From the IMG/VR virus record IMGVR_UViG_2541047746_000007: DNA of 29,075 bases; one strand, given 5' to 3'. The notes beneath the pieces were generated by a model. That model saw only the letters and a list, made by a program, of their open reading frames with translations. It ran no database searches and was not told where the DNA came from. The translations under genes and the position numbers were made by a program. This DNA comes from a virus (Duplodnaviria > Heunggongvirae > Uroviricota > Caudoviricetes). This document shows positions 11,305 to 13,205 of this stretch, one piece after another. The stretch's first letter is position 1. Each line of letters opens with the position of its first letter.

Positions 11305-11312
11305 ATTTATGA
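11305..11312. repeat. Target-site duplication ATTTATGA (left copy)
   Basis: Identical 8-mer directly flanks both inverted-repeat ends of the insertion sequence. Confidence 0.7.
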
Positions 11313-11411
11313 GGGTCTTCCCCTGTTGTGGTGGGTGGTACATAATTGAGTGATTTTCAAACACCACACAGTACCTTTATGGTGTCTCTTTTTACATGAG
11401 AGGGAATTCTT

Positions 11412-11930
11412 ATGAGTGTGCCGCAAACAAAAGCTGAACTGCTTTTAGCTATTGATAAAAATTTTAGTAAATTAATTAGTTACCTCAACACAATCCCACC
11501 AGAAATTACTTCAGATAAATCAATGGACGGACACGCCAAAGGAACGGAGATGAGTGTTCGTGATCTCGTTTCGTATCTGCTTGGATGGAATGCTCTTGTT
11601 GTAAAGTGGATCGCTTCTGATGCTAAAGGTCTGCCTGTCGATTTTCCGGAAACTGGCTATAAATGGAATCAGCTTGGCCTTCTTGCTCAAAAATTTTACT
11701 CAGATTACAGTGAGTTAAGTTATGAGTTGTTAGTAGCTGAACTTCAGACTGTAAAAAATGAGATTGTGAACCTTATTAATGATCGTACCGATGATATTTT
11801 GTATGGAAGACCATGGTACACAAAATGGACGATGGGGAGAATGATCTCATTTAACACATCTTCGCCTTACGCCAACGCTAATGGAAGATTAAGAAAGTGG
11901 GCAAAAAATAATAATATCAGTTTAAAGTAA
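11412..11930 (+). CDS. ClbS/DfsB-family (DUF1706) four-helix-bundle protein, colibactin self-resistance-like
   Basis: 172 aa; motifs GHAKGTEMSVRDLVSYLLGW, FPETGYKWNQLGLLAQKFYSDY and LYGRPWYTKWTMGRMISFNTSSPYANANGRL resemble ClbS as I recall it. Lower GC than the surrounding phage DNA; lies inside the IS boundaries. Confidence 0.65.
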   Translation: MSVPQTKAELLLAIDKNFSKLISYLNTIPPEITSDKSMDGHAKGTEMSVRDLVSYLLGWNALVVKWIASDAKGLPVDFPETGYKWNQLGLLAQKFYSDYSELSYELLVAELQTVKNEIVNLINDRTDDILYGRPWYTKWTMGRMISFNTSSPYANANGRLRKWAKNNNISLK

Positions 11931-11948
11931 GCTTCAGAATGAAATTAT

Positions 11949-13169
11949 ATGGACGAAAAATCCCTCTATGCCCATATCCTTAACCTGACTGCACCATGGC
12001 AGGTTAAATCCCTTACCCTCGATGAAAATGCAGGTTCCGTTACTGTTACAGTCGGAATTGCTGAAAATACTCAGTTAACCTGTCCGACCTGCAGGAAATC
12101 CTGTTCTGTTCACGATCACCGACATCGTAAATGGCGCCACCTTGATACCTGCCAGTTCATGACATTAGTAGAAGCCGATGTTCCCCGCGTTATGTGCCCG
12201 GAGCATGGCTGCCAGACTCTGCCTGTACCGTGGGCAGGTTCCGGCAGTCGGTACACTCTGCTGTTCGAATCGTTCGTGCTCTCATGGCTTAAAATCAGCA
12301 CCGTTGATGCGGTCAGAAAACAACTTAAACTTAGCTGGAATGCCGTTGACGGCATCATGACCCGCGCGGTTAAGCGAGGCCTGTCGCGGATTAAAAAGCC
12401 TTTATCAGTGCGTCATATGAATGTAGACGAAGTCGCCTTTAAAAAAGGGCATAGGTATATAACCGTGGTATCTGATCGCGACGGGCGGGCACTGGCATTA
12501 ACCGATGATCGTGGCACAGAGAGTCTTGCCAGCTATCTCCGTTCGCTTACTGACAGTCAGTTGTTGGCCATCAAAACACTGTCGATGGACATGAATGCGG
12601 GCTATATAAGAGCAGCGCGTATCCATTTACCCAATGCGGTCGAGAAAATCGCCTTCGATCGCTTCCATGTGGCGAAGCAACTGGGCGAAGTGGTTGATAA
12701 AACCCGCCAGAATGAACATCCGCACCTCCCTGTTGAAAGTCGTCGTCAGGCCAAAGGTACCCGCTTCCTGTGGCAGTACAGCGACAAATGGATGACTGAG
12801 TCCCGGCAGGAAAAGCTGATGTGGTTGCGGGAACAGATGCAACAGACAAGCCAGTGCTGGACACTGAAAGAGCTGGCAAAAAATATCTGGGATCGCCCCT
12901 GGAGCACAGAACGCAGGAATGACTGGTTGCAGTGGATATCGCTGGCGTCTGAATGTGATGTGCCGATGATGAAAAACGCAGCGAAAACCATTAAAAAACG
13001 GTTATACGGAATACTGAATGCAATGCGTCATCGCGTCTCGAATGGAAATGCGGAGGCGCTGAACAGCAAGATCAGACTGCTGAGGATAAAGGCCAGGGGA
13101 TACCGAAACCGGGAACGCTTTAAACTGGGAGTTATGTTCCACTATGGGAAACTGAATATGGCGTACTGA
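11949..13169 (+). CDS. ISL3-family transposase
   Basis: 406 aa; N-terminal Cys/His zinc-ribbon (CPTCRKSC...CPEHGC) and overall size typical of ISL3 transposases. Confidence 0.9.
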   Translation: MDEKSLYAHILNLTAPWQVKSLTLDENAGSVTVTVGIAENTQLTCPTCRKSCSVHDHRHRKWRHLDTCQFMTLVEADVPRVMCPEHGCQTLPVPWAGSGSRYTLLFESFVLSWLKISTVDAVRKQLKLSWNAVDGIMTRAVKRGLSRIKKPLSVRHMNVDEVAFKKGHRYITVVSDRDGRALALTDDRGTESLASYLRSLTDSQLLAIKTLSMDMNAGYIRAARIHLPNAVEKIAFDRFHVAKQLGEVVDKTRQNEHPHLPVESRRQAKGTRFLWQYSDKWMTESRQEKLMWLREQMQQTSQCWTLKELAKNIWDRPWSTERRNDWLQWISLASECDVPMMKNAAKTIKKRLYGILNAMRHRVSNGNAEALNSKIRLLRIKARGYRNRERFKLGVMFHYGKLNMAY

Positions 13170-13197
13170 GTCTTCCCACCATGATCGGGGAAGACCC

Positions 13198-13205
13198 ATT
13201 TATGA
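13198..13205. repeat. Target-site duplication ATTTATGA (right copy)
   Basis: Matches 11305-11312 exactly. Confidence 0.7.

Follow-up and report, generated by a model that had tools for sequence, protein, structure and literature searches.

Insertion of ISEc53 between rusA and kilA-N

The IMG/VR virus record IMGVR_UViG_2541047746_000007 (Duplodnaviria; Heunggongvirae; Uroviricota; Caudoviricetes) comprises 29,075 nucleotides, and this whole stretch is hereafter called the window. Between its rusA and kilA-N genes, positions 11313-13197 are occupied by a 1885-bp insertion sequence (IS) of the ISL3 family with two co-oriented open reading frames (ORFs), a ClbS/DfsB-family passenger gene and a transposase gene. 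By the name given to its exact transposase sequence, this element is the catalogued ISEc53, and it is not new as an object. The insertion lies exactly in the middle of an SOS operator: the 8-bp spacer of a consensus LexA box is the target-site duplication, and the operator has been split by 1.9 kb. The features of the locus are listed below by position, with the strand where one applies.

10858-11253: RusA gene, which flanks the element upstream (Pfam search)
11299-11304: left half of the split LexA (SOS) box, TACTGT (direct reading; contiguous with the spacer and right half in the empty site)
11305-11312: left copy of the 8-bp target-site duplication ATTTATGA, which is the LexA-box spacer (single copy in uninterrupted genomes)
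11313-11335, + strand: left inverted repeat (IRL) of ISEc53, GGGTCTTCCCCTGTTGTGGTGGG (19/23 match to the right inverted repeat, IRR; identical end at all independent copies)
11412-11930, + strand: passenger gene of the ClbS/DfsB family (DUF1706), 172 aa (Pfam DUF1706, 3e-54; 37.6% GC)
11949-13169, + strand: ISL3-family transposase of ISEc53, 406 aa (Pfam zinc ribbon, helix-turn-helix (HTH) and DDE_Tnp_ISL3; NCBIfam transpos_ISL3)
13167-13198, + strand: hairpin-forming inverted repeat GAGTCTTCCC...GGGAAGACCC over the transposase stop codon and the IRR (repeat search)
13175-13197, − strand: IRR of ISEc53, CCCACCATGATCGGGGAAGACCC (last 22 nt unchanged in ISKox3-like relatives)
13198-13205: right copy of the target-site duplication ATTTATGA (direct reading)
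13206-13211: right half of the split LexA box, ACAGTG (ACAG at +9..+12 from the IS end)
13309-14124, + strand: KilA-N domain gene, 100 nt downstream of the box (Pfam KilA-N, 1.3e-15; annotated likewise by the NCBI Prokaryotic Genome Annotation Pipeline (PGAP) in the empty-site prophage)

The element has the hallmarks of the ISL3 family, namely a single DDE transposase with an N-terminal zinc ribbon and HTH, terminal inverted repeats and an 8-bp duplication. Searches of the transposase returned PF01610 (DDE_Tnp_ISL3; 1.3e-58), PF13542 (2.9e-12) and PF14690 (3.3e-10), which include the ISL3 zinc ribbon and HTH, and the NCBIfam model transpos_ISL3 (NF033550) was matched at 6e-98 with 328 bits against a cut-off of 180. 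The protein is exactly WP_000343765, which PGAP names 'ISL3-like element ISEc53 family transposase'; the name ISEc53 used here was taken from this naming of the exact protein sequence, which derives from ISfinder. Consistently, all 1885 of 1885 nucleotides of the window copy are identical to a copy in E. coli MS 21-1, as are both proteins. The 23-bp inverted repeats agree at 19 positions when the IRR is reverse-complemented (GGGTCTTCCCCGATCATGGTGGG). The arms of the hairpin at 13167-13198 (11 nt each, 91% complementary, 10-nt gap) consist of the end of the transposase ORF and the tip of the IRR and are followed by ATTTAT; this structure might serve as a terminator or as a transposase-binding structure at the right end.

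ISEc53 is widespread. Among 5,426 complete E. coli genomes, the full-length element was present at ≥99% identity in 657 (~12%), on chromosomes and plasmids and in up to 9 copies per genome. The clbS-like gene was found in 675 of the genomes at 954 places (694 chromosomal, 260 plasmid), nearly all at ≥99% identity. Its count is thus close to that of the full element, indicating that the gene travels with the IS. Further, more than 10 other loci, differently flanked, hold a unit of the same 1885 bp with unchanged ends, and this constancy at so many independent loci places the passenger inside the true element boundaries. In the phage collection, full ISEc53 was not found; only ISKox3-like copies and relics were present. 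The window element shares its transposase, its length of 1885 bp, its ends and its passenger with ISEc53; the one difference is its place of insertion, in a LexA box of the prophage with rusA and kilA-N on either side, which is new among the complete genomes.

The uninterrupted form of this site exists. When the two flanks were joined with one ATTTATGA, the sequence aligned uninterrupted to other E. coli genomes along 1108 bp with 100% identity; ≥80% of it was covered in 186 genomes. The empty site reads GATACTGT-ATTTATGA-ACAGTGTA, that is, TACTGT-ATTTATGA-ACAGTG; as reconstructed and as observed (TACTGTATTTATGAACAGTG), it fits CTGT-N8-ACAG with an AT-rich spacer, the LexA operator of the gammaproteobacterial type. 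An annotated uninterrupted prophage integrated beside yjjG (locus L085) carries the box, CTGTATTTATGAACAG, at 14502-14517, and there is just one other such motif in this 29-kb empty-site locus. With a probe spanning the rusA/IRL junction, this insertion was seen in 0 of the 5,426 complete genomes, and the window copy is very recent. After insertion, the box is re-created neither at the junctions, which read CTGT-N8-GGGT and ACCC-N8-ACAG, nor within the IS, where there is no CTG-N10-CAG.

These data bear on an initial annotation of the window made from its sequence alone. Its description of one recent transposition event of an ISL3-family element, with the 8-bp duplication intact, holds in view of the exact coordinates, the perfect repeat and the 100% match of the empty site, and its passenger is indeed of lower GC content than the transposase (37.6% versus 50.4%). 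It had assigned the clbS-like gene to the element and raised the question of whether the same IS carries it elsewhere; the gene is contained in every independent copy, including those at the more than 10 other loci, and gene and element counts agree. The location that it gave, the rusA-kilA intergenic region, is correct but incomplete, as the site is a consensus LexA operator and the preferred target of this IS clade.

LexA operators as targets of the ISEc53 clade

Nine of the ten independent ISEc53 sites in E. coli are boxes of the CTGT/ACAG type. They include the dinD operator, used in both orientations, a chromosomal dinI/umuD-type region, symE (CTGG...TCAG) and sbmC; an imp-like operon on plasmids and a plasmid recombinase gene are further sites in this species. 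To extend the comparison beyond E. coli, the flanks of the two ends were collected separately. The 22-nt IRR, scanned against a species-wide genome collection, yielded 69 loci from Klebsiella, Providencia, Symbiopectobacterium, Yersinia, Rahnella, Erwinia, Rouxiella and others. ACAG stood exactly at +9..+12 in 51 of 73 unique right flanks, whereas each of the other registers held it in 0-1 and ~0.3 were expected by chance. The IRL, scanned against a metagenome collection, gave 120 loci, and CTGT stood exactly at -12..-9 in 80 of 99 unique left flanks.

Pooling the flanks of ISEc53, ISKox3 and relatives whose transposases are 68-100% identical, with identical flanks collapsed, gave 188 unique half-site flanks. 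The half-site was exact in 143 of them (76%, against ~0.4% by chance) and had ≤1 mismatch in 169 (90%), while CA occupied +10/+11 in 171 (91%). The duplication consensus of the pool is ATATATAT and position +13 is T, so that the combined target reads TACTGT(AT)4ACAGTA. A perfect 8-bp duplication was present in 25 of 41 full copies. Among the genes reading away from box-type sites (n=83) are classical SOS genes, which encode Peptidase_S24/umuD-like (13), DinI (5), IMS (2), colicin (2), SbmC-like (2), YebG (1) and pentapeptide (Qnr-like; 1) proteins. An outward gene start within ≤200 nt was found in 36 of 57 right and 48 of 71 left flanks, showing no orientation bias. This, together with the use of dinD in both directions, led us to reject 'SOS promoter capture', in which the cargo would always lie downstream of an SOS promoter.

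The same target is used by close relatives of ISEc53. ISKox3 and ISCfr12 (~1316 bp), which are common on IncX3 blaNDM plasmids, resemble ISEc53 in the transposase (90-93% identical) and the IRR, have nearly the same IRL, and share with it the 8-bp duplications and the CTGT-N8-ACAG target; they differ in having no cargo and in a transposase gene that starts ~65 nt from the IRL. A passenger-less 1316-bp relative with a 90% identical transposase in Enterobacter phage BHUENT6 is flanked as CTGT ATATATAT [IS] ATATATAT ACAG, and ISKox3 on the IncX3 blaNDM-type plasmid pGDQ8D117M-NDM (L209 2434-3749) as CTGT ATGCATAT [IS] ATGCATAT ACAG. The box on this plasmid lies upstream of a hypothetical gene and an S24 peptidase (umuD-like) gene, with IS26 beyond. 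The same right flank was observed in an Stx2-phage relic and in a 72%-identical copy on a Salmonella plasmid. Cargo-bearing elements with 68-89% identical transposases also sit in boxes; the sister elements, which have the same ends, are as follows.

1684 bp, Rahnella (L029/L084): double-SH3 protein cargo
1761 bp, Scandinavium (L032): FosA-like glyoxalase downstream of the transposase
1982 bp, Yersinia pekkanenii (L067): OspG-type kinase cargo (2.5e-88)
2215 bp (L057): 293-aa protein without a Pfam match
2600 bp, Rouxiella (L036): GNAT acetyltransferase on the opposite strand

A tblastn search of plasmids returned few relatives (29 records) at 60-80% identity and then distant ISL3 elements below 60%. 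The single control taken from outside the clade, an ISAe1-family ISL3 element with 27% identity, had the target-site duplication ATAGAGAG and no box, and on this one control we rejected box targeting as a general ISL3 behaviour. Collectively, insertion into LexA operators is the normal behaviour of the whole ISL3 clade around ISEc53, in either orientation and on chromosomes, plasmids and phages.

Some copies occupy imperfect sites. The fimB insertion of the ST131 (sequence type 131) kind is ISEc53 in a pseudo-site, whose intact target within the coding sequence is GATGG-ATATATAT-ACAC-TTTG (L003/L006/L007; L210 235-265). In the fimB copy L003, the right junction is 3 bp of the AT run short of the 8-bp duplication, and L202 has the full right flank. 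Another ISEc53 copy separates the HTH ORF of an IS3-family element from its rve ORF (L010 3894-3901), at the box-like site CTGT ATTTGTCT CCAG, a motif in coding DNA. Many copies, mostly at contig ends, were also seen in draft genomes (L022-L083), with ~16 loci in Candidatus Symbiopectobacterium sp. 'North America', ~14 in Providencia sp. Me31A and ~8 in Yersinia pekkanenii. These numbers suggest IS expansions that possibly fill a large share of the SOS operators there.

The ClbS-like cargo and the prophage neighbourhood

The passenger protein matched PF08020 (DUF1706) at 3e-54, with residues 1-165 aligned to profile positions 1-166 of 166, so the resemblance to ClbS/DfsB noted initially extends over the full profile length. 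The protein is WP_000115885, assigned by PGAP to the 'ClbS/DfsB family', and is 100% identical over all 172 residues to PDB chain 5COF_A, a crystallized 'uncharacterized protein'. Its four-helix-bundle fold follows from this identity, in line with the RefSeq name 'four-helix bundle protein'. It also aligned end to end with ClbS (PDB 6ANR; 1e-55), and in the ungapped alignment Tyr55 of the passenger (dlvsYllgw) stands opposite Tyr55 of ClbS (nlvsYligw). Tyr55 is reportedly the catalytic residue of ClbS. The passenger thus shares family, full-length alignment and Tyr55 with ClbS, the colibactin self-resistance cyclopropane hydrolase of the pks island; unlike clbS, its gene is low in GC, IS-borne and outside the pks island, and ~225 of 522 nucleotide sites differ between the two. 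There are no clb genes near the passenger gene, which sits in an IS within a prophage and not beside clbQ.

WP_000115885 is 53.6% identical to ClbS in the table of Silpe et al., who found that all ClbS-like proteins assayed (25-80% identical to ClbS) blocked the SOS response and prophage induction caused by colibactin. Their set included QDM73539, a 172-aa E. coli protein that is 52.4% identical to ClbS; the comparison of this protein with the window passenger is one of BLAST statistics (both 172 aa; 52.4% versus 53.6% identity to ClbS). Judging from these relatives, the cargo protein would hydrolyse or neutralize colibactin and thereby reduce DNA damage and prophage induction in any cell that expresses it, independently of the position of the copy inside a prophage. 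Wherever its IS is located, the cargo is likely to shield the cell from colibactin.

The association of gene and transposase is already on record. As far as the accessible portion of their preprint goes, Maklin et al. (bioRxiv 10.1101/2025.11.17.686825) described a clbS-like (dfsB/DUF1706) gene beside a single ISL3 transposase in E. coli chromosomes, plasmids and prophages, and read clbS-like genes as colibactin immunity. Their clbS-like transposon has the same gene and the single ISL3 transposase found here, and its neighbourhoods are called 'otherwise unrelated genes' in that portion, in which neither a name nor the ends of the IS nor a LexA-box target are mentioned. Both the element and its ClbS-like cargo are hence known, and what is added here concerns where the element inserts.

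In the window prophage, which is lambdoid, kilA-N is likely a LexA-controlled phage gene whose operator has been destroyed. A sigma-70 scan of the + strand found no confident promoter in the empty rusA-kilA-N intergenic region, and a hand-picked TTGATA-17-TAAGTT downstream of the box was discarded because it failed the criteria of the scan. The prophage repressor is of the LexA/S24 type and ymfK-like, and induction therefore need not depend on kilA-N. The window prophage matches the one beside yjjG, which has immunity genes of the ymfK/ymfT/ymfL type (L085).

A 108-aa protein encoded in the window two genes upstream of the interrupted box (10535-10861, + strand) consists of the LexA DNA-binding domain alone (PF01726, 2.9e-19), without the S24 cleavage domain; PGAP calls it 'LexA family transcriptional regulator'. 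This protein could act as a non-cleavable LexA mimic on that box or on host SOS genes. Its gene is preceded by those for a PerC-like regulator (9397-9885) and then a phage Dam N6-adenine methyltransferase (9852-10538).

Target recognition and its consequences

We favour the reading, with a probability of roughly 85%, that the window holds a recent ISEc53 copy with a ClbS/DfsB cargo, inserted into the spacer of a LexA operator as is usual for its clade. In mechanistic terms, an 8-bp staggered cut centred on the operator dyad destroyed the operator and duplicated its spacer. The transposase itself, acting as a symmetric complex, would read both CTGT half-sites, with the spacing between each of them and its cut site fixed. 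We consider such direct reading probable because the motif is symmetric and in exact register, the transposase has no extra domain, and pseudo-sites that should be poor LexA sites are used (fimB ATGG-ATATATAT-ACAC and several ACAC/ACAT/ACAA flanks). SOS boxes would then be conserved, non-essential landing pads, present on plasmids and phages too, that help the element to spread, and with each insertion one gene under SOS control would lose its link to LexA or to its promoter.

Several observations weigh against this reading. Some 10% of flanks do not resemble a box, and, even with identical flanks collapsed, related strains may have contributed flanks that do not stem from independent events. 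Mismatched duplications were present in 11 of the 41 full copies (L044, L056, L109, L116, L125, L145, L152, L159, L160, L164 and L175), yet these have CTGT on the left and ACAG on the right; we read them as products of homologous recombination between copies in different LexA boxes, which would generate inversions or deletions between SOS operators. Binding of LexA to the box upstream of kilA-N and recognition of the box by the transposase are both argued from sequence data. The sigma-70 scan of the + strand at the left end of the IS found no promoter upstream of the cargo gene. Finally, we found no description of LexA-operator targeting by this ISL3 clade in the full-text literature; ISfinder and TnCentral lay outside that search and may note it.

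Alternatively, LexA itself might guide the element, either because the transposase docks on bound LexA or because it uses only operators vacated after LexA cleavage, cutting between the positions of the LexA DNA-binding domains. Supporting this idea, the sites are mostly genuine SOS operators beside umuD-like, dinI, sbmC, yebG and colicin genes, and the half-site profile resembles the LexA motif. However, no domains were found in the transposase beyond the zinc ribbon, HTH and DDE that are standard for ISL3, the spacer would probably be covered by LexA when it is bound, and the pseudo-sites in coding DNA (fimB) and several ACAC/ACAT/ACAA flanks lack the C and G that LexA requires. Although these points are not decisive, we regard guidance by LexA as unlikely. 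A purely selective origin of the pattern, in which insertion is random and survives only in SOS operators as neutral or beneficial, has in its favour that these operators are non-essential intergenic DNA where insertions should be well tolerated. But selection cannot yield single-base precision, with one register in 76% of flanks and the others at 0-1; the pattern holds across many genera and in both orientations, and the window copy is too recent for filtering, which makes this account very improbable. The repeat search, for its part, extended the inverted repeat to 36 nt, including ACTGT...ACAGT, as if the CTGT/ACAG flanks belonged to the element and its true ends lay 12 bp further out. We give this practically no credence: element-free genomes hold CTGT-spacer-ACAG once at the same place, and the 8 bp between flank and inverted repeat differ at every site. 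The flanks were accordingly ruled out as part of the inverted repeat by the empty sites.

The presence of the clbS-like gene in a prophage invites a different explanation, offered in the initial annotation, namely that the gene is there because it benefits the phage or lysogen by stabilizing lysogeny against colibactin producers. Colibactin induces prophages, and expressed ClbS-like proteins block this induction (Silpe et al.); the accessible part of the preprint also reports clbS-like genes in prophages, along with chromosomes and plasmids (Maklin et al.). On the other side, the 954 gene copies are chromosomal (694) or on plasmids (260), at many unrelated SOS operators, the exact prophage insertion is absent from the 5,426 genomes, the phage collection held no full ISEc53, and a protective effect, if there is one, would extend to the entire cell irrespective of the location of the copy. 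As the phage carries a LexA box, the presence of ISEc53 in the prophage needs no selection for lysogeny, and the prophage location is explained by target choice. That the gene is there because it stabilizes lysogeny seems quite unlikely.

A bolder form of the targeting reading can be proposed, in which ISEc53, ISKox3, ISCfr12 and their cargo-bearing relatives are dedicated 'SOS-box hunters' whose transposases recognize the LexA operator and integrate in its spacer, and whose access to targets depends on whether LexA occupies them. Integration sites, many of which lie on plasmids and phages, would become available only when DNA is damaged, so that the genotoxin neutralized by the ClbS-like cargo would itself unlock them, and each hop would rewire one SOS gene. 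We put this forward tentatively, as an idea more apt to be wrong than right.

Other elements with specific targets include IS1397/ISKpn1, which use REP/BIME (repetitive extragenic palindromic/bacterial interspersed mosaic element) palindromes, the IS1111-attC group, which uses integron attC sites, the Tn5053/Tn402 'res hunters', and Tn7 with attTn7. The ISEc53 clade likewise inserts at a conserved, repeated or non-essential safe site, often on mobile DNA. Unlike those elements, it targets an operator to which a global transcription factor, LexA, binds, with the spacer as the duplication and an ISL3-family DDE transposase, and every insertion rewires one member of a stress regulon.

An IS clade that is abundant in clinical Enterobacterales thus appears to integrate specifically into LexA operators. 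If true, this explains why ISKox3 lies beside umuD-like genes on IncX3 blaNDM plasmids and why ISEc53 is found at dinD, dinI/umuDC, symE, sbmC, colicin promoters and phage regulatory regions. Each insertion strips LexA control from one SOS gene or cuts off its promoter, and could alter mutagenesis, toxin expression or prophage behaviour; recombination between copies in different boxes would rearrange the genome. The clade also offers a tractable system in which to study the reading of a 16-20-bp palindrome by a DDE transposase and the effect, favourable or not, that a host repressor has on it. Because the cargo of the clade includes ClbS-like, FosA-like, GNAT and OspG-kinase genes, such a landing-pad strategy would carry genes for defence, resistance and virulence from one chromosome, plasmid or phage to another.

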